Source of the DNA: Psammoneis japonica
Lineage: Eukaryota
Length of the DNA: 64,000 bases
Direction of reading: 5' to 3'
Assembly: GCA_008632985.1 (NCBI GenBank)
Contig: QPGO01000002.1
Span: forward strand, 248,001 to 312,000
Shown piece by piece: positions 10,977 through 64,000 of this stretch. Positions within the stretch are counted from its first letter, which is position 1, and each line of letters opens with the position of its first letter. The notes under the pieces are model-generated. The model did no database searches and was not told the origin of the DNA. It worked only from the letters and a program-made list of their open reading frames with translations. The translations under genes and the position numbers were made by a program.

Positions 10977-10977
10977 T

Positions 10978-16849: not shown

Positions 16850-17770
16850 CCGCCCACTGTCTGACATCCAGCAATTGGCATCATCAGCCATCAAGCATGC
16901 TCCACAAGACATCCAGCACCCAGCATCCATGACACACCACCTGGCATCCAGAAACCTCCATCCACCAGCCACTGGCTGCTGTCTGCCAGCAATCGTCAAC
17001 CATTCTCCATCATTCATCCACCATCTGCCATCCAGTGTGATCTGCCCACCATCTGCCACACCCCACCATCCATGATCTGATGTCTGCAGCCCATGTCCCA
17101 CATCCATCATCTGACATCTTGCATGTCTGCCATCCATGACTTGCCACCTGCCATGTGACATCCACCACACACCATGATCTGCCACCCATCATCATCCAGC
17201 ATCCAGCATTTGCCATCCACCATCAAGCATCCATGATCCTGTGCCATCCACCACCCACCTTCCAGCATCCATCATTTGCCATCCACCACAAAGCATCAAC
17301 CAACAAGAGTTTGGCATGTGCCATCCACCGCGCACCCTCCAGCAGCGGCCATCCACCCTCCAGCAGCAGGAGCCAGTGGTCAGCATCCAGCACACACCGT
17401 TTGTGGAGCAGCACCCATCATCCAGAGACCAGCGTCCAACATCTGCCATCCACAACTCCATCCAACATCCAGCATCCGTCATCTGCCATCCAACATCCAC
17501 AAACCACAAACCACCACCCACCATCCAGCACCCAGCACATCTGCCATCCAGTGCCCAGCATCATCCAGCACATCCAGTGTCCATCATCCAGCACCCAGCA
17601 CCCACCAGTCTCTGCCATCCACCTTCCATCATCCAGCACTCACCACTCACCATCCAGCCCCCACCATCAGAAACCCACCATCCAGCCCCCACCATCAGAA
17701 ACCCACCATCCACCATCTGCCATCCTCCACTCTCCACCATCCAGCGCTTGCCATCTGCCACTCACCTCCA
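16850..17770. repeat. Degenerate ~7-bp period minisatellite (CCATCCA/CCAGCAT-like), strongly C/A strand-skewed
   Basis: Runs such as catccagcatccagcat and ccatccagcacccagca over ~900 bp. Confidence 0.8.
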
Positions 17771-24503: not shown

Positions 24504-24541
24504 TTGATCTCTCCTCTCTCCCCAGTGCAACAAAAAGAAGA

Positions 24542-28247: not shown

Positions 28248-28282
28248 TCTTCTTTTTGTTGCCCTGGGGGGGCGAGAGACGA

Positions 28283-34000: not shown

Positions 34001-34271
34001 TTTCTCCAACACAGCCATTGCACAGCAGAAAGAAAAAGTGGAAAAGATTGCAAACACACCACTGGCCATTGTTGTTGTTTGCTGATTGCTGAGAAAATTG
34101 AAAGTTGAGAGTTTGTGTTGAGAACATTCAATTTTGACTCTTTCTCACATCTTTCCTGTTGTTTTCTCCACCACAGCTGGTGCACAACACAAACAAAAAG
34201 TGGAAAAGAGTGCAAACATGTCATTGGCCATTGTGGTTGGTTGCTGGTTGCTGGGTTGCTGAACAAAGTGA
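34001..34271. repeat. ~100-bp direct repeat x2
   Basis: ttctcca..acagc..aaaaagtggaaaaga.tgcaaaca..tggccattgt at ~34001 and ~34164. Confidence 0.75.
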
Positions 34272-37200
34272 GCATTTCTGTTTTTGGCTGTGGGAAAAAA
34301 ATGTGCGGATGACTGCTGCCTGTCTTTGCAACAATCTTTGCATGCATTTGCAGGCACATGTGTGCGTGTGTGGTGTCAGCAGAAACACCAGAGTGGGGAA
34401 CAATTTGCCCGGGGGCAATCAAACAATTTGGGCCACCTTTGCTTTTTGGTTTGGGGCTTGGCTGCATCGCAATGAATGAAGCGACACCCACATGCTCAGT
34501 TTTCAATTTGGTGCCTTCATTGACAATGTGGGTCAACCACAGACAACCCCACCACTGCTTCAATTTTTTGTTTGCTCTCTCCCAACACATCAGTGTTCCC
34601 TGCTCTTCATTTTCAATGCAGCCATTCCATTGACTCCATTTGTTTTCAATTTTCCAATTCATTGCTGAACATTTAAACTGCTGCCTGTTGTGGTGTGTCT
34701 GCCACCCACAAATCCATGTCTTTGGTGTTCTCCTCTTCTTCATCTCCTGCTTCCAACTGTTTGCTGTTGTCATCTTGGGTCTCTTCTGTCCCATCCACTT
34801 GCTCCCAGAACTGTCTCTGCCAAACCTTGTCACACTTGTCTGTGTCTTTGCTCAATCTTTTTTGGCCAATCGCACTTCCCAATTTTTTGCATCTGTCCAG
34901 CCCCTTCTTGCTCTGACCCTGTTGACCCTTTTGTGCTTGATTCATTTGATTGCCCTGCTTCTTGCTGCTTCTTTTCCACCTTCAACTCCTCCTTTGTTTT
35001 GCCATGCATGTGCGCCCACTTGCACCAATTGTTCTCCAACACCAGCAGGCTGAATGCCTTGTTGCTTGCAGATGCCAACACCTGTTCAAGCAATGTTTTG
35101 ATTTGAGCCAGTGCTTCCACATTGTCTTTCCCACCACTGTTGGCAGGAAGTGCAGGGTGAAGCAGCTGTGGGCATCCATGTCATCTCTCCCCTTTAGCAT
35201 GTCATCCAGTGATGGCATCTCTGCACTTGCATTTGCTCGTGCATTTCTCTTGTCATGTCAATGCACCCTTCTCACTCACACAACACAAAGCAATGATGTG
35301 CGAGCATTGTTCTCCATTGTCCCGCAACCTCTGCAATCAGTTTTGATGCAGCACTTGCAGAAGAACTCTTTCTTGAGTTCCAAACATGCATTGTTCCTCT
35401 TTCTTGTCATCTGCCTTCACACCTTGTCCTTTGACAATTTCCAGAACCAAGCTCTTGTTTCTTGGGGCACATTGATCTCAGAGAGCACAGTGTCAAATGC
35501 TCCGCCATTGCAATTTTTTGTGGCCTTTCTGTTCAGGAATTTGTGCTGTTGGAACAACACATTCTTGCAGCAGTTCTCCAAAACAAGCTTGGCCCTGTCG
35601 ACAATTTGTTTGTTGCATCACTTCTTCCTTCTTTTCTTGCTGGTCATGTCATCTTCCATGCTGGACAAGGCCAGAGCCCCACCTGTCACAACTGATCCAC
35701 CTTCACCCATTTGCATCATCCTGTGTTGTGGCCAACCCATCCTGCCCCTGTTCTTGGCAAGTCCTCCACAATTGCCACTTGCATTGCTCTGACATCTCTC
35801 ACCTCATTTTGCTGTGGGCTTTGGAGCAGTGCTGTTGCTTCCCTCAGGCTTGGCATGGTGGAGCACACATTTTGACTGGTTTGTTAAAAGTGACTTTGTT
35901 CACACACTGTGCTGCAAATCATCCAGTGCTGGGCCCCACGACGGCCTGCTGACATGCCTGCCCTGCATGTGCCTGTTGCCACACATTCCCACATGCGCCT
36001 TCTCTGTTCACGTCTCATTGGTCAGATTCATCTAAATGCAGGAATGCATGTGTGACACATGTGGTTTGTGCGATGCAGTGCAGGCAGCCACAAAATGGTG
36101 TGGCTGTGAAACTGCAACTCCCCAAGTGCGCAAAAAAGGGAAATGGTGGCAAGGAAGGACAGTGAGTGCATCTGAACCAACTCATCAAGAACAACATTGA
36201 TTGATGAGAGCAAATGGCCAAATGGATCAAGGTTGCACTTCATCTTTAGAGCGTCAAAGCCGGGGATGCAATCATCAGTCAATGGGCCACTTCTTGTGTG
36301 GTCCAAGCCAACAGATTTGCGTGGCTCTGGCAATGAGTTGAAAATGGACCAGACCTTGTCAATGTGTGGTGAGTGAATGGTTTTGGCTGGATGCCACCTG
36401 TTGGTCATGTTCACTGCACATGCATCCTGTCGCAGCTGTTTGTTGTGGCTCACCTGCATTGCTGAAGGCTGCCTCAGAGAGAGACACAACAGGTGCTTTG
36501 GTTGTCTGAAGGCTGTTGTGGCTGTTGAGGTGGCAATCCAAAAGCCCACTGAGTTTTGTGTTGGCCAAACGCAGGGAAGGAACACAACAACCATCAGCAA
36601 TTTTGTTGCCTTTCTTTGCGTTGATGTCCAACGGGTCATTGTGGTTAAACAGAACTTGTCCGGGGGCAAACCAAGGGACATTGCCAACTTGCTTGATGTG
36701 TTTGGAAACAGCAACAAACCCAGATGTCATGACAGGATCTCATTGACAGGCCAGACATGGCCAACTGGCACGTTGTTGTGCAAATTCTTCCTTCCCGTGC
36801 ATTGACTGGATGCAGAGCCACAGCCCATGAACATGCCAAGCATCTGGCGAACAGCGCAAGAGGAGGAAGAGCTGGCAGCAGGAGTTTTGCCAGCTTTCTT
36901 GGAGAGGGCCTTGAAATCCATTAGATCAAGGATGGGGTGACCCTCATTGACGATGTGAAAGCAGTTGTTGTGGTGGCTCTGGTTTGGAGGACAGACTTCA
37001 AATTGGATGGTGCCCTTGCAACGGAGCTGTGCAATGGCCAGGTGCATGTCTGAGTGTGCCATCATGTGATGACAGTGCTTCCCATTAGCACAAGCAGATG
37101 CCCAACCCCTGTCTAGATTGTGCAGCACAAAGTGAGCGCAAGTGATGTGTGTCCAATGAGCGCAGCTGGCCTGCCCTGGCTTGCAAAGTGTGAAAACTCT

Positions 37201-37797
37201 CTTCCAATGGGATTGTTTGGGCTCCACTCAGTCAGACCATGCTGGTGTCCTTGAGTTCTCTCCATTGTCTGGGAACAGAGCATGGGACAGTGGATGACTG
37301 TCAAGTGTTGACAGGAGGGGATGGCACCACATCGTCCGGAAGTGCCGGGCCATGCCCACTCCATTCATTTGTGTTTGCGCATCAGCTGAGGGAGTGCTTG
37401 TCAACAACACATCTGGCGGTGCAGCAGCAGGAGGCAAAGATGCTGCTGCAATGTCAGGGGGGGGACCGGGCTCAACATGCGGAACATTTGCCAAAGACCA
37501 GGGGGAAGTGGCAGGAGAAGAACCTGTGTGTTGGTCAACAGAGTCAACAAAACCAAGATTGACACCTTTGCAAATGCCACATGAGGTGGCGTCATGACAA
37601 TTGACCACACCCAGAGTGGGGCAGCCTCCAAAAGCTGCACCCCTGCAAAAGGCAAGGGCCATGGGATGAACCTTGGCAGCACACTCTCCGGCTTGCAAAG
37701 TGAGGAGGGAGCTGGGGACACAAGCTGACAAAGTCAGCGCAGGGAGCATCCGCTGACATTGCTGCACCCCCAATTGGAGTGGGGGGCATGGGCCATG

Positions 37798-38250
37798 TGC
37801 AACACACAGCTGCCAACAAGAGTCAACGCATCACGGCGACGTGTTGCAGCCTTTAAATGTCACAATGGGCGTGACAAAAACAACCTTTTGTCTGCATGCA
37901 CACTACATTGTGAATTCACAGCGGAGTGGTTCAATGCGCAACCATTGGGCAGGAGGCCAGGGGTTCGAAACCCTGAGTGGGAGTTGTCTGCAGCAACGTT
38001 GATCACTGTCGAACGCGCAAAACTCTGTGCAGTTCTGCACGTTCCTTCGCACGCACCCACACTGTTCCGCCAAAAACGTGCAGTGTCAGTGCACGTTAGT
38101 AAAGAGCCGCATGGACGCGTGACACATGGGGAGGAGTGCAACATGCAGCTGCCAATGAGAGTTGGTGCATCACGGCGACGTGTTGCAGCCTTTAAATGTC
38201 ACAATGGGCGTGACAAAAACAACCTTTTGTCTGCATGCATGCTGCACATG
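37798..38250 (+). repeat. ~110-bp direct repeats (37798-37910, 38138-38250) enclosing a tRNA-like segment
   Basis: Identical core gcatcacggcgacgtgttgcagcctttaaatgtcacaatgggcgtgacaaaaacaaccttttgtctgcatgca. Confidence 0.9.
37912..37983 (+). pseudogene. tRNA-derived sequence (pseudo-tRNA or SINE head) with Pol III A- and B-box
   Basis: A-box-like cagcggagtggttcaatgcg (TAGC.GAGTGGT.TAA.GCG before TA loss) and B-box GGTTCGAAACC in a caggg/ccctg stem. Anticodon arm not intact. Confidence 0.55.
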
Positions 38251-40404
38251 GGATGAACCCTGACAGCAACATCAGATGAGCTGCCAAACAAAACAGGACA
38301 TCCGGCTGCACTCCCAACAATGAAGGGGGCCATGGGATGAACCCTGGCAGCATGGCGGACATCTCTGGTGCCATCCAAGCAAGGTGGCATTGCACAAATC
38401 TGAGTGGATGAAGACCCGCAGTTCTTGATCTGGCGACTTTGCTTCCCAATCCTGGGCTGCACTGTTGCAGTGCTTCTTTGATGGACGAGAGTGGTGGGTG
38501 CCCCTCCTTGCCTTTGAGGAGCCAGATTGGGAAGAGCCGCAGCTGATGGCGCTGGTGAGGATGTGTTGTTTGCATGGCAAAATGACAAAAAATTTTGAAC
38601 AAAAATTTCGTGGCAGGACACAAGTGGGCAAACAAAAATTTCAGAGCAAACAAACTTGCAGGTTGAACAGAACTTCAACACAATCAAAGGCTGAAGGTTG
38701 AAATTTTTGTGGTCATTGGAAGACAGCTTCACCATGAAAAAAAAAAGAGGTGACACATTGCACAAAAAACAAGAGCATCAGTTTGAAAGAGAAGAAGAAT
38801 TTTGTGTGGGCAGTCCATGCAGAGAACATGCAGAAAGGAAGCCCTCCGGGAAACATGAGGGGTGGTGTGAAAATGATGAAAGCTTGTTAAATTTTAAATG
38901 AACTTGGCCCCTCATTTGAGGAACCAAAACTTGATGGAACAATTTGATCCCCTGCTCATCAAACCTGCCTCTGATGAAGTGTGGTGTGGAGTCACCACTG
39001 AATGAGTTTGAGAGGTGACAGACTTTTGCTGGTGCACAATCTGTGTGGCCCACAGGGAGCATGAGTTTGTGTGTGTTCCTGAGGAGGCCTGCACACATCA
39101 TTGAAGTTTCTGATGCTTCAAATGCACACCACACACACATGCCCAAAAATCTTGCAGAACACCCAAAGCAAACAGGGCGGTGTTGTAAAACACTTCTCAA
39201 AATGCCTTTCAAGTGAGTGCAGCAAGCAAAACAATCACTGTGGCCAAAAAACAGAGCCGCCATCAACAAAACAGACTCTGTCTCTTTTGCACTCTCCAAC
39301 AGCAGCACAACAATGCCCGGCAATGTTGTGGCAAGCAACCCAAGCAGCGCTCACTGATCTGTTGAGACAAGAAGATTGAAGTGACTGTGGACAACATTTG
39401 TGTGCTTCATTCCTTGGCCAAGTTGGGTTTGTGCTCATTGTTTTTGCAGTCACTTCATCTCACAACATTTTGACCCTCTCACTGCATTTGGGTGCAATGC
39501 ATTTCTTCTCATGTGCACTCACCCATCTGGTGCCAATCAGCTTTTGGCTTCCCCTGCAGGGTGTGGCCAGTTAGAGACATTGACAATGAAGCCAAATGTG
39601 TGTGGCCAACTGGTCAGCACTCCGGCACTCATTTTTTTGCAGAGGACTCTTGCCAAGTCCATCTCATTTTTTCACACAGATGACAGACACACCACTCTGT
39701 GGCTCATCAAAACTCAGCCAGCATGACCAGCGCTGTGCCTCCTGCTCTTGTTCTGGCGCTGCAGACTTGCACACAGTGTGCACCACAAGCAAACAAGGCA
39801 AGCCAATGAGCAGTCAATGGAGGGGCATTTGCACATTCAGCGCAAGTGCCCACATGCAGGCATTGTCTCAAGAGGTCAATCACAAACTGATGCCAGCACA
39901 GTTGACCTTTGCAGGTGCGCATGCTTCAAAGAATGACTCCTCCTCCTTGCACAAATCCTTGGCACCCAAATGCAAACTCGACATGCCATGTGTCAGCTGT
40001 TTGGCTTCTTTTGTGCTGTGGGGCCAGACAAAAAAAAAAGCAGCACTTTTTACAAAAAAAAAGAAGAGCTTTGTGTGGGTCACTTGCTGCCCCATCACCT
40101 TGTGTTGCTGTCCCAAGAGTCAAGATGACAAGAGGAAGTTTCTGAGCAGCACAAGTCTCTTTAAAACAAGTCACCAGTGCAGCAGATCATGGTGTTGGCA
40201 TTTGGCAAGGGACATTGATTGTGCACTCCACTCTTGCAACAGGGAAATGTTGCCCTCCTTGGCCACCAGGTTGCAAGAATTGCCAAATGAAAAACCAAGC
40301 CAAGACACCATGCACTGGCCAAAGCGTCTGGTGGTGAGGTCTTTTTCAGCACTCTTGCCCTCTCATGGTTGCATGAAGCACTCCTTTTTTGGAATGGTGG
40401 GTTG

Positions 40405-41422
40405 TGGTGCACACAACATGGGGAACCACTTGTTCCTGTTTTTTGAGCAGCACTGGTCAGCTTTGTTGCAGCCAACAACTTTTTTCAGCCTGGAGCTTGT
40501 CAAACACCCCTTTTGGAGCAGCAGCCAACAATGACTCTCACTCGGCTGCCAAGAGGGGGTGGCTCATTGTTTGTTTTTAATCAGCTTGACATTTCAGCAC
40601 ATTTGCAAAGGGCTGATGTGGTTGACAAGCTCCATTGAGCAGCTGCAACACCACCCCCTTTTGGGGATCTTGTCAGCAAGTTGCTGGTGCTGTGGGTCAC
40701 TTTTTGATGTGTTCTTGCTTGAGGTGCCTTGGGTGCATCAGATGTGTCTTGTGATGCAACAACAGACCAGACTGCTGCTGCCACATGAGGTGCTGATGAA
40801 GTCAAGAAGGTGTGCTGTGTGCCAGCAAAGATGAGGAAAAATTTGCCCTGAGCTCACACCAGCGGAGCTGGGTGCTCTTGCTCCCTGTTTTGTGGCAGCA
40901 GCGCTGGAGTGTGGGGTGTGGGGGAGTGCCTGGGTCCACCAGTGAGCTGGCTGCGTGCCTCAGTAGTTCCGAGTGAAGCCTGCCTTCTCGTGGTGGAATG
41001 TGCTGCATGTAAAGAAGGCAAATTCCAAAATTCATAAAAGATAAGTCAGCACCACAGACAGGCCGATGAAATGATGACGTCGCGTGAGATGTTTTTGGCG
41101 GGACAGGAATTTGAAAAACGCGCGTACGCGCGCACGCGCCGAATTCGAAAAAGATCCGTTGGGCGTGTAGAAACAATACATGATTCTACGGAGAATCCAC
41201 TTTGTGGTACATAAAGTCACGTAGGTTCTACGGAATGCATCAAAAATCGAGTCAAAAGCATCACATCGCCATGCGTCACAACTCAACAGCATTGACAACA
41301 TTTGACGTTGCATTGATATCATTAACAGGATGAACTTCTCCAAAGGCGCTCTCTCCGCAGTGACTGGCGGAGCCAACGACAATAACAACGACGGGAGCGA
41401 CTCGGAGGGATTGCGATCGCCG
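40405..41422. repeat. Inverted copy of 11931-13028
   Basis: Reverse-complement homology. Confidence 0.9.
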
Positions 41423-42449: not shown

Positions 42450-45400
42450 ATACGAGACAGAATTGAAACATGATCAATAGACGGATACGAAACGGAGTAG
42501 CGCGTATAATGCATTGATTATAATAAGGCACAGTTTTCATAATGGACCTTACTAGTTATCTGGCTCGTTTTGTTCGTAGCATAGTATACCGGTACCGTTT
42601 TTTCGTGGAGCGTCGCCAGATGATAAGGGTTTTGCGTATTCAGCTGCTCTTATCTTTCGTCTTGGACATCTTGATCACTCCCACGCTCGTCTTGTGGATA
42701 CTTTTATCGATAAGTCTAGACAAATAATTCTTACATCTTTCATAGCTTGTTCTTGAATGATAATCTTGTTCCCAGATTCGGGAATGAGATGATCGGTAAG
42801 ACTCAGAAAATTGAATATCGCTAGCAGCATCCAAGATCCTTCACCTTGGAGTCGCGTATTCAAAGAGTCACTATATCCCTTTCGCTAACCGAAGCGAAGT
42901 CGGCGTGCGATTTGTCTTTGGATTTACACAGTGCTCGTGAACACGCACCAAATCACAGCGAGGAGCAGTTTCTAAAGAAATCATGGACATAGCACAATGG
43001 TGAGAGACAGCTATACGATTAGCTTCCCTTTGATAAGTTCCACTCACCATAACGAAATCCCGATCCGATTTGCGCAGCGGCAAACGGCATTTGTTGAATA
43101 TTTGCGTCCGAGAGACTTTAAATTTACATAATGACCCTGTGCAATTTCCGGCCTCAAATAGCAAACGCTCGAACCTTCGGGTCCGACGCTGGTCTTGATA
43201 TAAGGCTCTTCAGAAAAAGGATTTGCCTGCGTCATGGAGCCGAGTGTGTCACACATTCCCATCCTCAAGAACTGGACGACGCAATGCTTTTCTTTCTCCC
43301 CTCAAGCGCGCGTAGTGTACATTACTAAGAATCTTTGACGAAGAATCTTTGACCTTATTGAACAGCGGGTTGATAAAGATGCCATACTTTGTCCGAGCTA
43401 CTGCAAAGCTGTCGATTCGATTAAAACTCACCGAGACGATCACCCCTAGACAGCAGAGCCCTCTCTCTAGATTGCAACTCTAAACTTTCTATTCTGCCTA
43501 CCAGCTTTTACCTTTCACGATTCGATAATGGCAGACGCTCTCTGGTTCCAGATTGGAGTTTCTGGTCTTGAAAACTCGCCGTGCTTGCGCAACAGCATAG
43601 TATGTCGCAACACCCCATCGGTCTTTGCTGGCCTCCAGTACGAACACGTACAGTCGTATGCTCAAAATCGTGGTTGCAACCATAGAAAGATAGGATTGAA
43701 TAGCCACATCATATTCAAAGTAGATATTGGACCCATTTTTTGGAACACACCTTTGTTGACAAGATTGCCTGGTGCCTGTTTCTGTTTCGAAAGCGCCTCT
43801 AATCCGATCACAAATGCCTTACGCTCTGAAAAGAGATGCCAACCATGCATTTTCCAGTCATTCTGCGGTTTCGGTCCCTTTTTTTCGGTACACAATGACT
43901 CAATCGCAGGGCTTCATTGTACGCAATTCTAAGAGCCGCGCCGGTAACAACTTCTGACGCCGTTGATTGCAATAGGAAACCTGCCCATTTCTTTTTCATT
44001 CCATACGAGATCTACCGTTTTGCTTACAGGAATAGCCGACTGGGCAAGTAAAGTTCAGAAAGCTGCTCCTGTGGAGACAAGAACAAAACGGCGTTGAAGC
44101 AACAGGCTTCGCACACGGCGTGTTAAAGTTCTGGATGCTCTACTCAGCAGCGTATTGCTTACAATACCATTCAGTATCAATACAACTACAAAGAATGAAA
44201 CGAAGCGATACATCCAAGCGGAGAATGTGCTTCAGCGAGAGGCTACCGGTATTTCTGTTTCTTGAAATCCTTATGTCGTTCAGATCCTCTAATTTTTTTT
44301 AACTTCAAAAATTGAAATTTTGATCACAACGGATGCCGCCTTATAATCGAATGCTTAAAACCTGAATATCCAATTGAAGATTTGACCGTTAGCTTTACAT
44401 TGAATATGAGGCTTGCCCGTTAACTTGTATTATATATATATATATATTTTTAAATTTTCAATCAATTTTAATTGAAGGTCTGCTGCCGGAACGAGCGAAG
44501 TTGACGCCGAACAAAATGACACAACAACTTGAAACTACGCTGCACCGCAAACCACGACACTTCCACCGGCACTGTAGTAGAGAGTAGAGGCATAACGCTT
44601 GACCTCGATGACATGCCATAGAGGCAACAAACTTTCAACAGCAAATCGCAGCACACAGTCTGACGTCGTCTCAGGTCATTGCAGCAGCAAAACGGTTTTC
44701 TCTCCGGTCCGGTCGGTGTAGCGCTCACCGCATTTTCTTCACTCTAGCGCGGAACTGCGGCTTTACATTGAAGAAATATGGACTTGAATGCGTCTCTTCT
44801 CACGGCCATTAGAATTGGCACTGCAGACGATGTTCGCAGCGTTCTTCAAGGTGGAGCAAACCCCAACGCAACTGTGACTCTCCGCCCACCCGCGGACGAA
44901 GACGATGATCCGCTTGTTGTCAAACCAGTCTTTTTTGTTATCATCTGTGATGATGCAGCCGATCGAGACGCCAAACTTCAGGTCTTGCTGGATGCTGGAG
45001 CAAGTCCGACGGATGAGCTGGAAGGTTACACACCACTGGGTTCTGCATGTTTGGCCGGTCGTCCGTCCCTGGTGCAAATTCTGTTGTCTCATGGAGTGGA
45101 TGTAAACAACCAATGCTCTCCTCATGGGACACCATTGCATGAAGCTGCATTCCATGAAAATGCTGAAATTTGTCTGCTGTTGTTGCAGAATGGTGCTGAT
45201 GCAAATTCAAAGGATCCCGACGGTTTGTCGCCGCTTCACGCTGCAACGCACCGTGGAGCCGTAGACGTGGCGCGAGTGCTCCTGGCGAACGGAGCTCGTA
45301 TTAATGACGCCACAAATGATTTTTCTCTAACGCCTTTGCACTTTGCCGGTGTTGCAGACATGGCAAGATTGCTCGTGGAACACGGAGCTGATTTGAGCGT

Positions 45401-45753
45401 TACTTGCGTCCGAGGACAAACGGCGTTGCAGCGCGCACTTAGGAAGGGCAAACATGCGGTGGTCTCTGTCTTGATGGAGGCGCATGGGCAGAAACTATTG
45501 AAGTGTGATCATCTTCATCCGATGTTATGGGCCCATGTCTTGGCCAAAGTGGGAGAGAGGAGCACGGACATGTCTAGAGTGGGCATCAATTACGCCTTAC
45601 TTCGCGAAAAACCGGATCTGTTTGGCTACAAGAATGCCGGCAGAAAAAGAAAGCAACCCGATCGTTCTGTTCCAGAAGGGTAAAACAACACAGTATGGCA
45701 GTATTTGTTGTAGCTGATACTCTTTATATATAGACATGCTATGGGGAGTGTAC
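41655..45753 (+). repeat. Segmental duplication copy 1 (copy 2 at 55443-60437)
   Basis: Collinear high identity over ~4.1 kb. Copy 2 carries two extra TIR insertions. Confidence 0.95.
44778..45683 (+). CDS. Ankyrin-repeat protein (301 aa)
   Basis: Repeated G.TPLH.AA..G...V..LL..GAD.N motifs. C-terminal LWAHVL..YALLREKPDLF motif of a kind common in diatom proteins. Confidence 0.92.
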   Translation: MDLNASLLTAIRIGTADDVRSVLQGGANPNATVTLRPPADEDDDPLVVKPVFFVIICDDAADRDAKLQVLLDAGASPTDELEGYTPLGSACLAGRPSLVQILLSHGVDVNNQCSPHGTPLHEAAFHENAEICLLLLQNGADANSKDPDGLSPLHAATHRGAVDVARVLLANGARINDATNDFSLTPLHFAGVADMARLLVEHGADLSVTCVRGQTALQRALRKGKHAVVSVLMEAHGQKLLKCDHLHPMLWAHVLAKVGERSTDMSRVGINYALLREKPDLFGYKNAGRKRKQPDRSVPEG

Positions 45754-47889: not shown

Positions 47890-48890
47890 TCGAAATCACA
47901 AATTCTCCCTCCGGTGCGGTGGGTGTGCAATGTCTTTATTGTTTGTTGTGGTGGATGGATCTAAAGGCGTGTGGAATGCCCGAACCAGGCAACAACAGCT
48001 TGCCCACACAAGCAAGGTCAAATTGGTTGGAACACTGGAAGAAGCCTGTTTCCAGCCACGCGTCAAACGGATTGGTGCCGTGGAATGTTCTGTCAAATCA
48101 AGGCAACCCGACACGACCAACTGATGCAAAAAACCTTGTGCCATGTTTGACATTCACACCCAACATTCTTTGTCACATGCAGCGCGTGTCTGGGGCTTCA
48201 CTCTGCCTTGTTCAATCTACAACATCGCTGGAGCGCCCCTTCCAATTGAAGCATGTTTTCTGTGCACACGGCATCCAACAAATCCATCTGCACAGAATGG
48301 AACTTTGCACAACAAAGCCAAGCCTCTTTTGGATTCCTTGCACAATTTCCATTGACGACGAAACAAGAGTCGCAAAAATCGGCCCAAGGGATGTTGAGAT
48401 GTCACCGCCGCCAAATGTTGGGCATGAATTCCAGCGGCAGCTCAGCTTTGGTTGTTCAACGACAAGCTCCGAAGAGAAAGTCAGGGCTGAAAAACCCAAG
48501 CCCTGTGGACGACACTTTGTGGCACATGCGTCAAAATGATGACAAGAAGTGAGAAACAACACCAAAGCTGCAATGGCGCATCACAAAAATCCATCATGTT
48601 GGTGCTGCATTCTCACAATTTTTGCGCCGTGCCTTCAGCCACAAACCCGCCTCGATGGAATGAACTCAATGCCAGCACCACTGGACCATCATGTTGCTTG
48701 TGTAAAAGCTCCAAATGCTGCAAAAAGAAACGGGAAAATGCGGCAAAAATGGACACAGATGTCAGCGATGCAAAGTGGGCCATTGTCGCGATGGTTTTCT
48801 TTTTTGGTTGTCTTCGCCGCGCGCCTTGGAGGGTGCCATGCTGCAGGTTGATGCATGCAGCGGAAGTCGGTGTCTGTGCTTTCCTGGTGA
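47890..48890. other. Small TpA-depleted block D
   Basis: Only about four TA in 1 kb, flanked by TA-normal sequence. Confidence 0.8.
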
Positions 48891-49307
48891 CCCTGTACCC
48901 GGTAGAAGAAGTGCTAGACCCTACGCAGTTGCACCCAGCGTTGCATTCTTTCCGTTTACCTCCACAGCACCTGCCGGCAGCAGTCATCGCTCGGCTGAGA
49001 CGCACGACGCACGTACAACCATTGTTTGTGCAGGGCGGGCGCGCGCGCGCGGACTGACTTCCGCTGCGGTCTTGCCGTCACAAGTCTACACGATCATGGT
49101 ACTGTTTCTACGCTGGTACTAAAAATGTCGCTCTATCTACAGACTCAAATCTGTGTTGCTTTCTTTTTGTGACGTGTGCCATTATTAACGACCCGATGCA
49201 TTGAACCAAAATTACTTATGCTCGCATGGGCCTGCTACCGCCCCAGCACGACTTCGGCAATAAAAAATGATTGCGTCATCCACATCAACGATTCAAAAAT
49301 TTGACGG

Positions 49308-55124: not shown

Positions 55125-56261
55125 ATGGACGAGTCCGACAAGGAGAGCAACGCATCGCAAGGACAATCTTCCTTGGAAAGGAAGAGAGAGCAGAGCCGCA
55201 AGAGTTCGACCAAGCATCGAGAGAAGAAGAAACGAGAGAAGAAAGAAGCCGAGGAGAAGAAGAAGGCGGAGGAGGAGGAGAAAAAGGCCAAGAGTCGCGA
55301 ATCTAGCCGTAGACACCGCGAGAAAAAGAAGCTGGAAGCGCTACAGAAAAAACAGCACGAAATGGACAGGTTGAAGAAGATTTTCTTAAGTCAGGACTCC
55401 CAGCAAGCCCACCCTCAGGAAGAGGCCCGTCATGAGTCGGGCGCTCTCTTCACGCAACCGACTCCCAACCGTTACCATCAAGGCAGTCCCGCCGCCATGA
55501 TGACTCCTCGACAAGCCCCTTCTCCCTTTGCAAGGACGTTCACTCCAGAAGTATTCAGTCAGATTGACGAGTCTTTCAAGAGCTCGAAACGGAACGATGA
55601 GAGGGCAACCCAGATTTTGGATCAGCATCAGCAACAGATGTATCAGCATCAGCAACAGATGTATCAGCATCAGCAACAGATGTATTCTTCGCGCCAAAAG
55701 TTTGAGGAACACAACCGAAAGCGCCAAGGTACCGAAGAACAGCATCGTGAGTTCCTGATGAACGCAAGCACTATACCAACTCCCAACAAGCGTTTCAAGT
55801 CGAGTCATCCGTCGTCTGAATTCACGTCGAACGAGTTCAATGCAACCTTACATTCGGCAAAGTCGGATGGTCCAGCCCCATTCAAGCCAAACGTGTCTCC
55901 CGTCTTCAATGCGAATCTTGATTCTACGAAGAAGAATATCAACTTTGGACAATATCACACTAGGAATCTTGATTCCCACCACAAGTTTCGCATGGATGAC
56001 TACGGTGTTGATACGGTCCAGAAGGCGAAGGAAAATGAACCGAATGAGAAGGCCGGCGTTGCCACTCTGGGTTCCAAGCATGTGGTTGCATTTGCGAAGG
56101 GTGATATTGTGTACTACACCAAGGATGGCGAGAAATATAAGGCGGAGATTCTCGATACTTACAAGGATGACAAGCTCGATCCGTATTACTTTGTTCGTGT
56201 CTTCAAGCCCACCGGGTCCGTCGACAAGGACACGGAATCCAAATACCTCTCCGCCTTTTAG
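55125..56261 (+). CDS. 378-aa protein: two bZIP-basic-like segments, (QHQQQMY)x3, C-terminal Tudor-like domain
   Basis: Intact ORF with RKREQSRKSSTKHREKKK and KAKSRESSRRHREKKK. 21-bp repeat x3 at 55621-55684. The C-terminal ~270 aa are paralogous to the 41330 gene. Confidence 0.8.
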   Translation: MDESDKESNASQGQSSLERKREQSRKSSTKHREKKKREKKEAEEKKKAEEEEKKAKSRESSRRHREKKKLEALQKKQHEMDRLKKIFLSQDSQQAHPQEEARHESGALFTQPTPNRYHQGSPAAMMTPRQAPSPFARTFTPEVFSQIDESFKSSKRNDERATQILDQHQQQMYQHQQQMYQHQQQMYSSRQKFEEHNRKRQGTEEQHREFLMNASTIPTPNKRFKSSHPSSEFTSNEFNATLHSAKSDGPAPFKPNVSPVFNANLDSTKKNINFGQYHTRNLDSHHKFRMDDYGVDTVQKAKENEPNEKAGVATLGSKHVVAFAKGDIVYYTKDGEKYKAEILDTYKDDKLDPYYFVRVFKPTGSVDKDTESKYLSAF

Positions 56262-58260
56262 ACATGAGACAGAATTGAAACACTGTCAACCGCAGACGGA
56301 TACGAAACGGAGTAGCGCGTAGAATGCATTGATTACAATAAGTTTGTACTAGGCAGAGTTTTCATAATGGACCTTTACTAGTTATCTGGCTCGTTTTGTT
56401 CGTAGCATAGTATACCGGTACCGTTTTTTCGTGGAGCGTCGCCGGATGATAAGGGTTTTGCGTATTCAGCTGCTCTTATCTTTCGTCTTGGACATCTTGA
56501 TCACTCCCACGCTCGTCTTGTGGACACTTTTATCGATAAGCCCAGATAAATAATTCTTACATCTTTCATAGCTCGTTCTTGAATGATAATCTCGTTCCCT
56601 GATTCGGGAATGAGATGATCGGTAAGATTCAAAAACTGAATATCGCTAGCAGCATCCAAGATCCTTCACCTTGGAGTCGCGTATTCGAAGAGTCACTATA
56701 TCCCTTTCGCTAACCGAAGCAAAGTCGGCGTGCGATTTGGCTTTGGATTTACACAGTGCTCGTGAACACGCACCAAACCACAGCGAGGAGCAGTTTCTAA
56801 AGAAATCATGAGCATAGCACAATGGTGAGAGACAGCTATACGATCAGCTTCCCTTTGGCAAGTTCCACTTGCCATCACGAAATCCCGATCCGATTTGAGA
56901 AGCGGCAAACGGAATCTGTTGAGCATTTGTGTCCAAGAGACGTTTCAAATTGACAAAAAGACCCTGTGCGTTTTCCGGCCTCAAATATCAAACGCTCGAA
57001 CCTTGGGGTCCGATGCTGGTCTTGAACATGAGGCTAAAAGGCTCTCCAGAAAAAGGTTTTGCCTGCGTCATAGAGCCGAGTGTGTCACACATTCCCATAA
57101 TCAAGAACTGGACGACGCGATGCTTTTTCCATCTCCCCTCAAGCGCGCGTAGTGTACACTACAAAGAATCCTTGACGTTATGGAACAGCGGGTTGACAAA
57201 GATGTCATACTTTGTCCGAGCTACTGCAAAGCTGTCGATTCGATCAGAACTCACCGCGACGATCACCCATAGACAGCGGAGCCCAGATTGCAACTCTAAT
57301 CTTTCTATCCTGCCTAATGGCAGACGCTCTCTGGTTCCAGATTGGAGTTTCTGGTCTTGAAAACTCACAGTGCTGGCGCAACAGCATCGTCTCTCGCAAC
57401 ACCCCATTGGTCTTTGCTGGCCTCCAGTACGAACACGTACAGTCGTTTGCTCAAAATCGTGGTTGCAACCATAGAAAGATAGAAATATAGGATTGAATAG
57501 CCACATCATATTCAAAGTAGATATTGGACCCATTTTTTGGAACACACCTTTGTTGACAAGATTGCCTGGTGCCTGTTTCTGTTTCGAAAGCGCCTCTAAT
57601 CCGATCACAAATGCCTTACGCTCTGAAAAGAGATGCCAACCATGCATTTTCCAGTCATTCTGCGGTTTTGGTCCCTTTTTTTCGGTACACAATGACTCAA
57701 TCGCAGGGCTTCATTGTACGCAATTCTAAGAGCCGCGCCGTAACAACTTCTGACGCCGTTGATTGCAATAGGAAACCTGCCCATTTCTTTTTCATTCCAT
57801 ACGAGATCTACCGTTTTGCTTACAGGAATAGCCGACTGGGCAAGTAAAGTTCAGAAAGCTGCTCCAGTGGAGACAAGAACAAAACGGCGTTGAAGCAACA
57901 GGCTTCGCACACGGCGTGTCAAAGTTCTGGATGCTCTACTCAGCAGCGTATTGCTTACAATACCATTCAGTGTCAATGCAACTACAAAGAATGAAACGAA
58001 GCGATACATCCAAGCGGAGAATGTGCTTCAGCGACAGGCTACCGGCGGTACAAGTATTTCTGCTTCTCTTGAAAGCCTTCGTCGCGTTCTAGAGGTACGT
58101 ACTATCATCCTCCTCCTCTTTTTTTTTTACTTCAAAAATTGAAATTTTGATCACAACGGATACCGCCTTAATCCAATGCTTAAAATCTTCATATATAATT
58201 TTAGGCTTGCCCGTTAACTTGCATTATCGATATATCCATTATTAATTTAATCAACATTAA

Positions 58261-58771
58261 GGATGGATCTACGTGCTGCGGTCAGTTTTTTGGGAGCTCG
58301 TAATTTTTATAAAAATAACCCGGATGCATCGTAGTAAATGCGCGCGCGTTCGCAAAAAAAATTTCAGCGATCGGTCGAACTTTGTCCGTTCGCCAGACAC
58401 CCTAGAATGCTTAAACAACAGGTGTGACCATGCGCGCGTTTTACCTTAACGACTATGGATATGTCTGTAGCCAGTCAAATGCCACTTGTCGGCATTTCCC
58501 GGAAAGTCACCGCCAATCTCCCACAAGAAGCCCGATTTTAGCGAAAACCAGCGGTTTTTTCAACCTGACAACAGGGCACAGGTCGACAAGTGGCATTTGA
58601 AGCGCCAAATGTGCAGCTCACAGCCCTCTCACAGCCCCCCATGAGGGTTTGACATGAGGGTTTGACGAACGCACAAGTGTTCGGGGGTGTTCCGAGGCAG
58701 GTCAAAACAACACGGTGAAGTGCGGGAAATGCGAGCCATTTTAAATTAGACTGCAGCACGTAGATCCATCC
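58261..58771. mobile_element. Non-autonomous TIR element (~510 bp) inserted at TTAA (Kolobok-like GG..CC ends; a TA-TSD reading is equally possible)
   Basis: TIRs GGATGGATCTACGTGCTGC.GTC / GAC.GCAGCACGTAGATCCATCC. Absent from the paralogous site at 44468 (ttttaattgaagg). Flanks are ttaa and tcaa. Confidence 0.9.
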
Positions 58772-58869
58772 TCAACTGAAGGTCTTGCCGGAACCAAGCG
58801 AAGTTGACGATGAACACAATGACACACTGCGCTGCACCGCAAACACTTCCACCGGCACTTCAGCAGAGA

Positions 58870-59259
58870 GACGGGCTTCAGTCCTGGGCGGGACTCTGTG
58901 TGACATTGGGCCAGCAGAATTCTGCGTGCAAGCTCCGCAGTGCGAGAATTTGGTCAATGGATGCATTTGTCTTCAACATCAAATGAACGGCCAAGTTTGT
59001 GGTGCAATTGTGCCTCTTGCCACTCGACGTTTTTGCAAGTGCGCCTGCCCTGCACGATTCTCAAGACATTGTAGAATCGCACTGCAACAAAAAATGTCAA
59101 AAGTTGTTGGATGGATCGCTCAATGAGTGTGCCGTAAAATGACACAAAACATCGAAAAAATCACGCAGAAATCTGCGCGCGCTACATGCGATGTAATTCA
59201 AAAAACTGTCTGTGTCACAGTTCAGCAGTGCGAGGTCCCACCTAGACCTGGAGCTCGTC
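58870..59259. mobile_element. Non-autonomous TIR element (390 bp) with 4-bp TSD GAGA
   Basis: Ends GACGGGCTTCAGTCCTGGGCGGGAC / GTCCCACCTAGACCTGGAGCTCGTC. The empty site gtagagagtag is at 44578. Confidence 0.85.
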
Positions 59260-59457
59260 GAGAGCAGAGGCACAACACTTGACCTCGATGACATGCCACA
59301 GAGGCAACAAACTTTCAACAGCAAATCGCAGCACACAGTCTGACATCGCCTCAGGTCATTGCAGCAGCAAAACGGTTTTCTCCCCGGTCCGGTTGGCGCA
59401 GCGCTCACTGCATTTTCTTCACTTTAGCGCGGAACTGCGGCTTTGCATTGAAGAAAT

Positions 59458-60366
59458 GTGGATTTGAACGCGTCTCTTCTCACAGCCATTGGACGTGGCA
59501 CTGCAGACGATGTTCGCATCATTCTTCGAGGTGGAGCAAACCCCAGCGCAGCTGTGACTCTCCGCCCACCCGCGGACAAAGACAATGATCCGCTTGTTGT
59601 CAAGCAGCCTTTTGTGTCATCATTTGTGACAATGCAGCTGATCCAGAAGCCAAACTTCAGCTCTTGCTGGATGCTGGAGCAAGTCCGACGGATGAGCTGG
59701 AAGGTTGCACACTGCTGGGTTCTGCATGTCATGAAGGTCGTCCATCCCTGGTGCAAATTCTTTTGTCTCATCATGGAGTGGATGCAAACGACCAAAGCTC
59801 TCCTCATGGGACACCATTGCATGAAGCTGCACTCCATGAAAATGCTGAAATTTGTCTGCTGTTGTTGCGGAATTGCGCTGATGCAAATTCAAAGGATCCC
59901 AACGGTTTGTCGCTGCTTCATGCTGCAACACACCGTGGAGCCGTAGTTGTGGCGCGAGTGCTCCTGGCAAACAGAGCTTGCATCAATGACGCCACAAATG
60001 AATGTTCTCTAACGCCTTTGCACATTGCTGGTGTTGCAGACATGGCAAGATTGCTCGTGGAACACGGAGCTGATTTGAGCGTCACTTGCATCCGAGGACC
60101 AACGGCATTGCAGTGCGCACTTGGGAGGGGCAAACATGCGGTGGTCTCTGTCTTGATGGAGGCGCATGGACAGAAACTGTTGAAGTGTGATCATGTTCAT
60201 CCGATGTCATGGGCCCATGTCTTGGCCAAAGTGGGGGAGAGGAGCACGGACATGTCTGGAGTGGGCATCAATTGCCCCTTGCTTCGCGAAGAACCGGAGG
60301 ATCTGTTTGGCCACAAGAATGCCGGCAGAAAAAGAAGCAACCCGATCGTTCTGTTCCAGAAGGGTC
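59458..60366 (+). pseudogene. Hypermutated, frameshifted copy of the ankyrin gene
   Basis: Aligns to 44778-45683. ATG>GTG, Tyr>Cys/His changes and indels. Confidence 0.92.
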
Positions 60367-60499
60367 AAACAACACAGCATGGCAGCATTTGTTGTGGCTG
60401 ACACTCTCTCTACACAGACATGCCATGGGGAGTGTGCTGCCCAAAGTTTGCAACTGCAAAACAACATCCATGGTCTGCATGTCGAATTTGTGTCACTGC

Positions 60500-62700
60500 A
60501 AGGGTGTCCCAATCAGCGCAACAGATGAATTGCTGAGAACTGTGCTGGATGAATTCTCCAGTGGTGGGTTGTCTGTCACCCGACAAGTGCCCTCTTCTTG
60601 AACTTTCATGTCCAAGCTCAAGTCAATGTTGAATGGCATTGTGGCCCCGGCACTGCAACAAGTTCCCCTTGAGTCTGTTTTCATCATCAACCAATTCAAG
60701 AGCAACCCGCTGCAGGAGCTCTCTCCTGGCATCCCTGTGTGTGACTTTTCCCTCCAACTGCAGGACCTTTTTGACGATCCCCTTTTTGCCGATCTTTCAA
60801 ATCTCGATGTTCCTCCTTGTTCACATTGGTCTCAGGTGCTCTCCAGTGAACCCATGTCAGACAAGAGTGGCAATTGGAAACTTTGTGATGATGCCAAAAT
60901 GAAGAATGGAGAAACTCACAGCACCTGTTTTCGTGGCAATGACGTTCCCCGCTGTCCGCAGATCCTTTCATGTTTTGGGTTTGTGCTGCACCAACAAAAC
61001 TGGGAAAGGACAGGTTGCACCTCATTTGATGGAGCCATTCGTTTCCTCTGCAACTCTCATCAAGGCATCTGCCTGTCATTGTTTTGAAGCATGGCATCCT
61101 CTTGGATTCATTCCGAAACACACAGGTTGCAAAACAAAGAACCCCGTTTTTGGGTTGAATGTCAGCAGAAATTGTCGCCGCATTTTGTCTGTCCTTCTTG
61201 CATCTGTTGCCTCCTGTCTGCCGCATCTGACTTGGCAACCAGCATTGTTGCAAGCGCATTGTTGCCGCAAAAAATCCTGCCACATCTGTCATGCCTGTCA
61301 CACCTCCCGGACATGCAGCAATGAACCGCTGCATTGCGGCAGGCATTTTTCTCAGGAAGTGATGGAGCGTTTGACTGCTGCAGCTCTTGGACCACCACCT
61401 GGTTCAATGGACAGTCCGTGGCATCTGTTTGTTGAACCACAAATGGCCACAGTGATGTCCAAGGCCAAAGCTGAGTCAATCCATTCCAAGGGACACAGTG
61501 CAGTTTTCCGGTGCACGAACATTTGTTCCTCCATGCTTCACAAGGTGTTCGGCCAACACACGGTTGACAACTCAACATTTCCTCTTCGAACAGGAGACAA
61601 TCATCAGGGCATGTTTGGGTTTGCGTCCCCTGACCCAATGCACATGTTCCAAGGTGGCACACCAGTCCCTCAGATGCTCTCCGCCATTGTCAATGATTTG
61701 CCCGACTCCGCCAAAGGCCACTTGAATGATTTGGCAAACCGCACGTTTGGATCTCAGTGGTGCAGACCCAGTCAGAGAACAATGTTTCCACCAGTTGTCT
61801 TGCAAAATGGCTTTTGCACCTTGTGTGGTTTGACCTGTGGCCAAAAGATGGGGAAGCTGTTTGCGACAGTGCCAGCGGGTCAGACTGCAGAGGGATGGGG
61901 CATGCTCCATCTTTGTTGCCATCCAGATTTTGACAAGACAAAGAAAAACAAGCCTCAATGGATGCAAACCAGAAATGTCAACCTGGATCAACACACAACT
62001 CTGTGTCCCCAGCAACAATGATTCCTCTGTTTCCAACATTTTCAGATGCTGTGCAGACCGTCGCCAGCCACTGCACTCACAGGCAACTTCTCATGACCAG
62101 CCGTTGGTCTGCTCAGAAATTGAAAAGGAGTTGCCTCTTACATTCCGCCAAAGCCTAAAGAGCCTCGACCCAGAGCTGGCCAGTCATTCAGCGGACTGTG
62201 ATGATGTGGATCATCTGTTGCTTTTGCTCAACAAATTGTTGTTGCTCCACTCCTTTCACAGCTGTGGTTCTTCCCTGCACTCACAAACCAATTGCGTCAA
62301 TGATGTTGAATGTTGCCTTGTTCTTTTGATGTTGGTGAAGGCACACATGGATGGAAAACATCAAAAGTTCCACAATTTGCTTCACTTGACAGCTGCTCTT
62401 TGTTGACTGGGCACATTTTCTGGATGGACCTGCCAAGCCTCACAAGGTGAAGAAGAGTTCACCAGTCAGCTTGCAACCCAACTGCATGAGCAAAGTCTGT
62501 TGGAGAGAGCAAACAACTTGATTGTCCGCCCCCTTGCCCCTGATGATTTGCCACCCAGCACAACATTGCACCACAACCTGGGGCACACTGTGTCCACAGT
62601 TGACCGTGTTGACAAAACATTTAGAGGAAAGCACCAAGGCAACCAACTTGTCTCTTTCCGGCTCCATGTCTGATCAAGAGCTCTCGGATGACAAGATGTT
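60500..62700 (+). mobile_element. Degenerate Plavaka/CACTA-like transposase
   Basis: Motifs across frames: PVCDFSLQLQDLFDDP, TNKT..EPF, AWHPLGFIP, DPMHMFQGG, RPSQRTMFPPV..NGFCTL, KFHNLLHL. These match Plavaka-type transposases once Cys/His are read back as Tyr. Confidence 0.65.
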
Positions 62701-64000
62701 GTTTGTCCTTGACATGAAGGATGAGTGGCCAGAAATCTTTTTAAATGGTGACATGCACTCAGGAGGCAGGGGTGCACATGAAGTGAGACAAATCGTCAAA
62801 ACAAAGTTTTTTTCCTCACATGATTTTCCTGAATTCCATCAACGTTCTTTGGCAGAATGCTGCAAGGTTGGAACATGACCGCACACTCTCTGGGTCAGTT
62901 GTGTGATCGCATTTAGCAACAAATTCCTCTGGACCATGCCATTTGTTGACTGCGAAGAACTTGATCCTGTGTTTGAATCCATGTTTCTTTGTGGCAGCAG
63001 GGCACAACTCCTTGCATCGCATTGGCAAGAAGACTGTGCCGTTGTCATGCAGGAAAATAAAGTCCCATTTCAAACCATGCTTCTTTAGACAGTGCAGGTG
63101 GCAAGAGAGCTGGTCCATGCACACCATGGTCACTGACATTTTGTTGTTGCGCATCAGTCTCCGTGCAGCTTCACACATCTTCCATGCCTCCTCCAACTCA
63201 ATTCCACCGGAATCAACAACAAGATGGCTTTCCAACGAGGTGCCAACAGAATCCGTTTTCATCATCATCATTCAAAGTGGCGCTGGCAGCATTCTCAGCA
63301 GGACAATTCCCCAGGTGGGCACCTGATTGGATGTGCAAAGTGCCTCTTGCACTTCCCAGCTGGACTGCTTTCCGCGTTCTTTCTGGCGTGCCCATTTCCC
63401 TTTTGTTTCTTTCCGTCTGTTGTCAACTGACAAGCTGTGTCCTTTTCTTGTTCTGCAGAGTTTGGGTTGCGCAGCACTCTGTCTTGCTCCTCCAAAAAAC
63501 AAACAAACCAAGATGGACAATCCTGGGCTTTTGCTGATGTTCTGCCCACCTTGGATGGGAGGAACAGTGAACCTTGCCAAGGGCACCACTGCATTGTGCC
63601 TCTTGCACCAGGCGCGCACAATGCACTTGAACAGCTCACCTCTTGGTTGAGACAGAGCAAGGAGAACTCTGTCCCGGGATGGCAAGGAGACAGCAATTGA
63701 CACAGACCAAGCTGGCAGCGGTGCTCCGTTGTGCTCCCTGCAAACCAACCCCTTGCACTCTGCAACGTGTTGGAGACAAACAGCTCCGTTGCAGCAACTG
63801 CAAAACAAAATCCAAAGCCACGCAATGCACCCAAGCATTGTTGTTTGAGTCTTGTCCTCCTTCATGATCTTGGTGCACCTTCCGTCACTGCGATCAGATG
63901 TTGCACGCATTTCTGCCAAAGACAGAATTTTTTCTGTTGCCTCAGCCATTTCCTCTTGGTTGCTGAGTGGGTGGAGGTTGATTGCATCCAAGCATTCCTG

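Follow-up and report, generated by a model that had tools for sequence, protein, structure and literature searches.

We analyzed a window of 64,000 nucleotides from the diatom Psammoneis japonica (GenBank assembly GCA_008632985.1, contig QPGO01000002.1, positions 248,001 to 312,000; coordinates below are those of the window). It contains a duplicated ankyrin-repeat gene, one copy of which lies in DNA of normal composition and the other inside a domain nearly devoid of the dinucleotide TpA. A sequence-only reading had explained the differences between the two copies by a directional conversion of TpA to TpG or CpA. The features on which the comparison depends are the following.

44577..45751, plus strand: copy 1, the intact ankyrin-repeat gene with its flanks (open reading frame (ORF) 44778-45683, 301 amino acids), in normal-composition DNA
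59257..60435, plus strand: copy 2, the hypermutated ankyrin pseudogene, inside a depleted domain
58774..58870, plus strand: a short piece (97 bp) homologous to sequence upstream of copy 1 (partner 44470-44584), already inside the depleted domain
55443..58220, plus strand: the control part of the same duplication (partner 41655-44395), with both copies in normal DNA, 87.7% identity over 2831 columns
58257..58775: an insertion in copy 2 resembling a miniature inverted-repeat transposable element (MITE), with 27-nt terminal inverted repeats (93% complementary) and TTAA / TCAA flanks, straddling the domain boundary
58871..59256: the other insertion in copy 2, which is a very high-copy repeat without counterpart in copy 1, partly TpA-depleted with 5 TpA left

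The alignable block of the two genes, 44577-45751 versus 59257-60435, comprises 1181 columns with 99 mismatches and 8 gap columns (90.9% identity). Copy 1, which matches Pfam family Ank_2 with E = 3.4e-43 and has 34 TpA in 1175 bp, was used as the reference state. For the span 44761-45720, the site list of our alignment returns exactly the numbers that had been counted by hand: 23 TpA in copy 1 correspond in copy 2 to 20 TG or CA and 1 TC, and 2 are kept. The individual examples cited then are also present, namely ATG>GTG at the start codon, TAC>TGC, GTA>GCA, CTAGAG>CTGGAG, CTAC>CCAC and GTATGGCAGTAT>GCATGGCAGCAT. Over the whole block, the 34 TpA of copy 1 read CA (17), TG (10) or TC (3) in copy 2, with 4 kept. 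As had been claimed, copy 2 gains no TpA: all 4 that it possesses are common to both copies, and no TG or CA of copy 1 reads TA in copy 2. The change runs in one direction, with TG or CA at 27 of 34 TpA and no reverse change (27:0, binomial p = 1.5e-8).

That copy 2 is the derived state had been argued from gene integrity, and the argument holds. The ORF of copy 1 is intact; copy 2 is frameshifted, no longer has its start codon and scores less well against the ankyrin profiles. Its lesions are the ATG>GTG start, a stop codon that is altered, deletions of 1 bp at two sites and insertions of 3 bp at two others. When the same aligned segment is scored in both, Ank_2 gives 128.7 bits in copy 1 versus 90.6 bits in copy 2, and Ank 93.9 versus 68.4. 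Residues of the repeat consensus gone from copy 2 are two prolines (TPLH-type motif) and two hairpin glycines. Furthermore, TpA in copy 1 is at the ordinary level of the window, and the anomaly is the state of the domain, where the observed/expected ratio (O/E) of TpA is 0.05. Judged on these grounds, copy 2 is the derived copy.

The duplication proved longer than first described, extending over 41655-45751 and 55443-60435, and its 2.8-kb remainder serves as an internal control. In this part 96 of 129 TpA are kept and 15 have become TG or CA, with 8 changes in the reverse direction; CpG is kept at 125 of 142 sites. Conversion of TpA to TG or CA thus affects 27/34 sites in the depleted part versus 15/129 in the control part (Fisher p = 4.7e-14). 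In the short upstream piece at 58774-58870, 3 of 3 TpA and 2 of 9 CpG read TG or CA. Because a single duplication is converted inside the domain and normal outside it, with copy 1 untouched, a homology trigger of the kind known from repeat-induced point mutation (RIP) can be ruled out and position is indicated.

The passage from normal to depleted DNA occurs inside a single MITE-like element. TpA is dense at 58258-58468 and found afterwards only at 58539, 58742, 58747 and 58761, placing the boundary between 58468 and 58539 (58469 according to the hidden Markov model (HMM) described below), with a TpA-rich left half and a TpA-poor right half. Compared with the left flank and arm, those on the right show one TA>TG and one CG>CA.

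We aligned to the window the Logan contigs of three sequencing runs (X1, X2 and X3) from one sample. Summed contig depth is ~98,000 in the bin 58675-59341, which holds the 58871-59256 repeat, versus ~100-250 in single-copy bins. Every piece of the small run X3 maps to this repeat, and a 26-base pattern taken from it gave 0 exact matches in metagenome contigs of the Joint Genome Institute. The pseudogene itself is low-copy (summed depth 42.6), and a repeat cluster with a depth of 255-1242 begins at 60436. The ankyrin pseudogene would have been struck through its location between the MITE-like element, the high-copy repeat and the repeat cluster, not through being a duplicate.

CpG also decays in copy 2. 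There 22 of 70 CpG have become TG or CA, with only 6 reverse changes; the control part has 8 of 142 (p = 1.2e-6). Simple arithmetic on the pair counts gives a TpA loss (-ln 4/34 = 2.1) about 5-6 times the CpG loss (-ln 48/70 = 0.38). Outside TpA and CpG contexts, the 955 sites compared from copy 1 to copy 2 show 13 AT>GC and 6 GC>AT transitions. The control part is similar, with 36 versus 26, so there is no general drive towards GC and the effect is specific to TpA. The dinucleotide AA is spared in copy 2, with 8 of 82 changed to AG or GA. Changes at TpA are transitions to TG or CA in 27 cases out of 30, the other 3 being transversions.

A second pair of repeats replicates the pattern. Between 14340-14531, which is depleted, and its normal counterpart 46201-46005, all 5 TpA have become TG, CA or CG, and the depleted copy has 0 TpA. 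Among repeats with both members inside domains, CA opposite TG is the commonest double mismatch: four such pairs have 8, 3, 2 and 8, in total 21 in 1010 columns, versus 1 in 3733 columns of two normal pairs. These double mismatches correspond to independent conversion of an ancestral TA or CG in each copy, so that conversion took place in situ and after duplication in the repeats as well.

The depleted DNA stands out in 1-kb dinucleotide profiles. Depleted blocks have a TpA O/E of 0.00-0.12, a CpG O/E of 0.00-0.79 and a TpG/CpA O/E of 1.4-2.3; in the rest of the window TpA O/E is 0.37-0.84 and CpG O/E near 1. Using a two-state HMM on TpA occurrence, with parameters of our own choosing (0.042 versus 0.003 per base, switch rate 1/3000), we called five domains.

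4957..7272: domain 1, 2.3 kb, TpA O/E 0.09, CpG O/E 0.62
12252..20513: domain 2, 8.3 kb, TpA O/E 0.04, CpG O/E 0.23, including 14340-14531
29365..40963: domain 3, 11.6 kb, TpA O/E 0.04, CpG O/E 0.20, TG 1.77, CA 1.84, with ORFs lacking a Pfam family
47963..48895: domain 4, 933 bp between TpA-rich flanks, 2 TpA left (O/E 0.03), CpG O/E 0.69, contig depth ~1200-1800
58469..64000: domain 5, holding copy 2 and running past the end of the window, TpA O/E 0.06, CpG O/E 0.50, TG 1.67, CA 1.66

Together they occupy 28.6 of the 64 kb and retain 87 TpA, with an O/E of 0.05 for TpA, 0.32 for CpG, 1.76 for TG and 1.78 for CA, and a G+C content of 0.494 versus 0.475 elsewhere. TpA is depleted more than CpG in every domain. 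The edges are sharp: TpA occurs each 10-20 bp and then ceases within tens of bases. The sequence-only reading had proposed that conversion is targeted to a locus; it is indeed targeted, but to kilobase-scale domains, together with CpG decay, rather than to a single locus.

TG and CA counts are near equal in four of the five domains. A hand calculation on the TG and CA outcomes of the gene pair gave 11 runs versus 13.6 expected, which is not significant. Near-equal counts of the two products and the lack of strand-coordinated runs fit a process acting on duplex DNA, symmetrical between the strands. Domain 2 is the only domain where CA clearly exceeds TG (1044 versus 850); within it, 17001-18000 has a strong excess of C over G (GC skew -0.47) and diverged direct repeats (17186-17488 versus 17458-17760, 68%). 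We saw no periodicity of residual CpG or TpA within the domains, and recognized no terminal inverted repeat or target site duplication around the 933-bp domain 4. Bins of domains 4 and 5 have contig depths of 255 to ~98,000, except for the pseudogene bin (42.6), and the 255-1242 seen in bins 60009-64000 of domain 5 indicates repeated DNA; most other bins are at ~100-250, with two lower and some higher.

Domains 2 and 3 each have an edge homologous to one of the other. The sequences 11931-13012 and 41422-40419 (inverted, 77%) make the left edge of domain 2 homologous to the right edge of domain 3, and in both copies the change from normal to depleted DNA lies no more than ~140 bp from one and the same homologous point. 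The boundary was thus either copied along with the sequence or is determined by the sequence at that place.

We consider it highly probable that an in-place, domain-targeted process acting at the DNA level in diatom nuclear DNA converts TpA to TpG or CpA, beside ordinary CpG decay. The earlier proposal of a targeted A:T-to-G:C change at TpA on both strands is backed by the direction of change, its context, the internal control, the second pair and the TG-versus-CA double mismatches. The process would consist of an A:T-to-G:C transition on either strand at TpA, within discrete, sharply bounded and repeat-rich domains. As is known of diatom transposons, these domains may be silenced, cytosine-methylated chromatin, to which an enzyme would be recruited that modifies one base of the TpA step. 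In the available text of the relevant study (PMC9998398), diatom transposons are described as CpG-methylated via DNMT5a, and RID-related DNMT4 genes as widespread among diatoms. The outcome would be a permanent loss of TA-containing signals such as TATA-like elements, tyrosine codons and the stop codons TAA and TAG.

Several points weigh against this interpretation. It is built on one window, and the methylation, the silencing and the enzyme are all things that we infer. A search for an outgroup with the ankyrin protein returned generic ankyrin proteins with at most 43% identity and no orthologue (among 120 listed of 3485), so that polarity depends on gene integrity, profile scores and the extreme composition of the domain. 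Pfam scans recognized no protein family of transposons or viruses in the depleted domains, where the ankyrin pseudogene is the sole family; the 'repeat' status of the domains derives from contig depth, which covers 44-64 kb only. Some repeats could have entered already TpA-poor. X1 contig cover is thin over 59342-60008 (summed depth 42.6), and the evidence consists of contigs rather than reads, from one sample. Finally, at 10 of 14 informative sites, counted by hand, the base after the mutated A is C, a proportion that is not significant on the paralogue pair alone. When depleted and normal DNA are compared by trinucleotide, TGC/GCA gain most (+14.6 per kb) and TGA/TCA least (+4.3); as the baseline composition of the repeats is not established, this 3'-C trend is only a lead.

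As to the chemistry of in-place conversion, we tentatively prefer an ADAT2/TadA-like deaminase that turns the adenine of 5'-TA into inosine, with subsequent replication. This fits the U33-A34 context, which is invariant for TadA/ADAT2, as well as the weak 3'-C trend. TadA and ADAT2 act on U33-A34 of tRNA, and TadA does so in a UAC context, which the 3'-C trend resembles. With these enzymes, with ADAR and with the TadA-derived adenine base editors, the process would share the conversion of A to inosine read as G and the preference for a 5' T or U. However, we know of no natural enzyme that edits duplex genomic DNA across kilobase-scale chromatin domains.

Alternatively, the modified base may be thymine. 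A TET/JBP-type dioxygenase would oxidize T at TpA, and 5-methylcytosine (5mC) at CpG, to give 5-hydroxymethyl- or 5-formyluracil, the ionized form of which pairs with G. All our counts fit this chemistry equally well, since T>C at [T]pA is A>G at Tp[A] seen from the other strand. Moreover, TpA shares with 5mCpG the form of a 5-methylpyrimidine-purine palindrome, and this could account for their joint decay. The 5-hydroxymethyluracil of dinoflagellates favors TpA and TpC, and base J occurs in the TpA of trypanosome telomere repeats. Among the mutations that 5-formyluracil causes in DNA, A:T>G:C is the principal one, according to a published account (PMC7051996). However, 5-formyluracil also gives transversions, which make up only 3 of the 30 TpA changes here, and in a literature search for 5-hydroxymethyluracil in diatoms, all 15 papers listed were on dinoflagellates. 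Thymine oxidation is a doubtful alternative.

That CpG decay and TpA loss occupy the same domains could also be read as a sign of patch repair, in which T:G mismatches from 5mC deamination enter a non-canonical mismatch repair and a polymerase like DNA polymerase eta (Pol-eta) introduces A>G errors at WA (W being A or T). The commonest error of Pol-eta at WA is indeed A:T>G:C, as is familiar from somatic hypermutation. This model is improbable. It does not account for the sparing of the AA half of WA (8/82 AA to AG or GA versus 27/34 TA), nor for the low share of transversions at TpA (3/30), and TpA is lost ~5-6 times faster than the CpG that should trigger the repair (27/34 versus 22/70).

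A modified base at TpA, together with 5mC at CpG, might instead be systematically miscalled within the domains, the TG and CA being absent from the DNA. Such a base-calling artefact is unlikely, in our estimate very much so. Miscalls made strand by strand would give conflicting TG and CA reads, and the consensus would include TA and CG; yet 0 of 34 TpA sites became CG where about one quarter is expected (0.75^31 = 1.3e-4 for the 31 sites reading TA, TG or CA), and CpG is depleted in the domains. Copy 2 furthermore has indels and 42 other substitutions, and in Bigelowiella natans Illumina reads gave the same signature, as described in the preprint discussed below. X1 contigs differ from copy 1 at 0 of 574 and at 2 of 513 bp, and the assembly is thus accurate in normal DNA. 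Changes between contigs and window are balanced by kind (A>G 219, T>C 231, G>A 218, C>T 262). Over 58438-60204, which holds most of copy 2, there is no contig difference among the 40 listed (beside 1327 others), a result that is compatible with the converted state, though not decisive. The artefact draws what credit it has from a sequencing platform that is not known, from the thin contig cover over copy 2, from the best run containing only 0.56 of the sampled 31-mers of 54001-64000 and from the restriction of the effect to domains that are plausibly modified. Run X2 has next to no cover (0 to 1.35) over 48670-49336, 50671-51337 and 59342-64000; neither this nor the thin X1 cover was taken as evidence on expression or modification.

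Explanations that do without in-place mutation are scarcely credible, even though no orthologous outgroup was found and ADAR, according to the B. natans preprint (bioRxiv 10.64898/2026.01.13.699255), favors a U on the 5' side: a reversed polarity, with RIP-like C>T at CpA in copy 1, conflicts with an intact copy 1 of ordinary TpA content, a broken copy 2 with lower ankyrin scores and the anomalous state of the domain; GC-biased gene conversion would not stay restricted to TpA; a pseudogene is not under compositional selection; and retrocopied A-to-I RNA editing is at odds with the presence of both TG (10) and CA (17) products and of ~3 kb of upstream DNA in the duplication.

The in-place conversion of TpA has a close precedent. 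The sequence-only reading had suggested a system not yet described; however, the same TpA-only A>G/T>C hypermutation has been reported for the chlorarachniophyte B. natans (Mettrop et al., bioRxiv 10.64898/2026.01.13.699255), and what follows is taken from the available text of that preprint. Illumina sequencing of mutation-accumulation lines yielded 302 nuclear mutations, 231 of which lay in two insertions, an integrated nucleocytoplasmic large DNA virus (NCLDV, 186 kb) and a virophage (25 kb). Among the 231 in the insertions, 230 were A>G or T>C, stated to be all on TpA, at a rate of ~6e-7, roughly 1000 times background. The authors proposed an ADAT2-like DNA adenine deaminase, citing DNA editing by ADAT2 (bioRxiv 10.64898/2026.01.13.699255).

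The two cases have in common a near-exclusive A>G/T>C change on TpA, yielding TpG or CpA according to strand, its restriction to discrete regions with ordinary mutation elsewhere, and clusters of 1-kb windows depleted in TpA and enriched in CpA+TpG, which in B. natans are enriched for transposon-type domains. The thresholds given in the preprint for such clusters are reached by 27 of our 64 1-kb windows, in runs of up to 12 consecutive ones. They differ in host, a chlorarachniophyte (Rhizaria) there versus a diatom (Stramenopila) here, and in depth, with a rho of 0.45 for the NCLDV region versus a much deeper TpA O/E of 0.05. The B. natans insertions have recognizable viral genes, whereas the diatom domains consist of repeats without a recognized family and an adjoining host pseudogene. 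De novo events were recorded there, whereas here we have an evolutionary footprint alone. The available text of the preprint mentions neither CpG nor diatoms; in P. japonica, CpG decay accompanies the domains. Judged by this footprint, the diatom process is of one kind with the hypermutation of TpA in the viruses integrated in B. natans. Our literature searches brought up no report of TpA-specific hypermutation in diatoms and, for the phenomenon as such, the B. natans preprint alone; a diatom as host, CpG decay alongside and the almost total erasure of TpA appear to be new.

Fungal RIP and 5mC deamination had been set aside in the sequence-only reading as unable to explain the pattern, and rightly so. 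In Neurospora and other fungi, RIP changes C to T at CpA, creating TpA and stop codons, and mutates both duplicates by homology. Like RIP, the diatom process would be one of dinucleotide-specific transitions that riddle repeated or foreign DNA, inactivate genes irreversibly, leave a compositional footprint and can reach into adjoining unique DNA. However, its direction is opposite, in that TpA is destroyed and TAA and TAG are removed, and neither copy 1 nor 2.8 kb of the duplicated DNA has been touched. With 0 TG or CA turned to TA in copy 2 versus 27 changes from TA to TG or CA, and no homology trigger, we reject fungal RIP. Deamination of 5mC does share with the domains the excess of CpG>TpG/CpA changes (CpG O/E 0.32; 22/70 CpG in copy 2). 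As an account of the whole footprint it is also rejected: 5mC decay cannot remove TpA, and the stronger effect (O/E 0.05) would be left unexplained.

Outside the domains, Pfam assigns the following genes.

1449-2577, minus strand: SNF2 helicase
3479-3841, minus strand: Gpr1/Fun34/YaaH protein
46343-47388 and 53153-53738, minus strand: a UAA/SLC35B1-type nucleotide-sugar transporter gene in two copies, with 87.7% identity over 397 bp

For the transporter exon at 46343-46942, named relatives are all diatoms, with a best identity of 67%; the Protein Atlas gave its family and no informative taxon. Run contigs join across both transporter copies, skipping ~6.3-6.4 kb. Adjoining the SNF2-helicase gene, a 97%-identical duplication in normal DNA (1-1072 versus 20878-21956) has kept 48 of 50 TpA; this duplicate is young and its spectrum ordinary. 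Normal DNA also includes a tandem duplication, 24625-24770 being identical to 24835-24980, and 24636-24875 matching 24741-24980 at 93%.

The Pfam scans covered 22 ORFs starting with ATG and 172 of 173 stop-to-stop ORFs of at least 110 amino acids, the remaining one, the ankyrin frame, having been scanned as an ATG ORF; of the small ORFs of the depleted domains (65-109 amino acids), 150 of 177 were scanned. Scans of the window for Rfam families and tRNA genes found nothing. Domain ORFs of 290-371 amino acids without a Pfam family include 60906-62021, 39596-40534 and 33922-34794, among others. Since TAA and TAG are erased and TGA is the sole remaining stop, such long domain ORFs are spurious, and their abundance sets a trap for gene prediction. 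In normal DNA, a 712-amino-acid ORF at 26109-28247 (plus strand) had no homologue in a search of 5.8 billion proteins, and only a sub-threshold match to DUF5755 (E = 4e-4). Pieces related to it recur in normal-composition DNA at 10727-11929, 24261-24546, 27541-28435 and 41551-41647, which suggests a lineage-specific gene family. Another ORF, 41706-42449 (plus strand), lies in the duplicated block, with its duplicate around 55035-56258, and has a weak, sub-threshold match to Tudor-knot (chromodomain-like, E = 0.007).

Beyond the prior report on B. natans, the present window adds the duplicate of a host gene whose internal control reveals positional, not homology-based, targeting, a quantitative tie to CpG decay in the same domains, and boundaries sharp enough to be mapped against chromatin marks. 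The search for the enzyme is also made concrete, as candidates can be compared by presence and absence across diatoms with and without such domains. If our interpretation is true, such a natural system, with enzymes producing A:T-to-G:C changes in duplex DNA, would be of interest for base editing.

Diatoms account for a large share of ocean photosynthesis, and some species are genetically tractable. If the footprint is real, TpA-directed hypermutation is not peculiar to one chlorarachniophyte, and it shapes nearly half of this diatom region. We may speculate, quite tentatively, that diatoms and chlorarachniophytes share a chromatin-guided DNA base-editing defence acting on TpA, a 'reverse RIP', that is widespread in the supergroup of stramenopiles, alveolates and Rhizaria (SAR). 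An enzyme recruited to methylated, silenced domains would edit TpA, by adenine deamination or thymine oxidation, as a natural editor of A:T to G:C in duplex DNA, and TpA editing and 5mC decay would together drive both palindromic pyrimidine-purine steps to TpG/CpA. Transposons, integrated viruses and the DNA between them would thereby be permanently disarmed.

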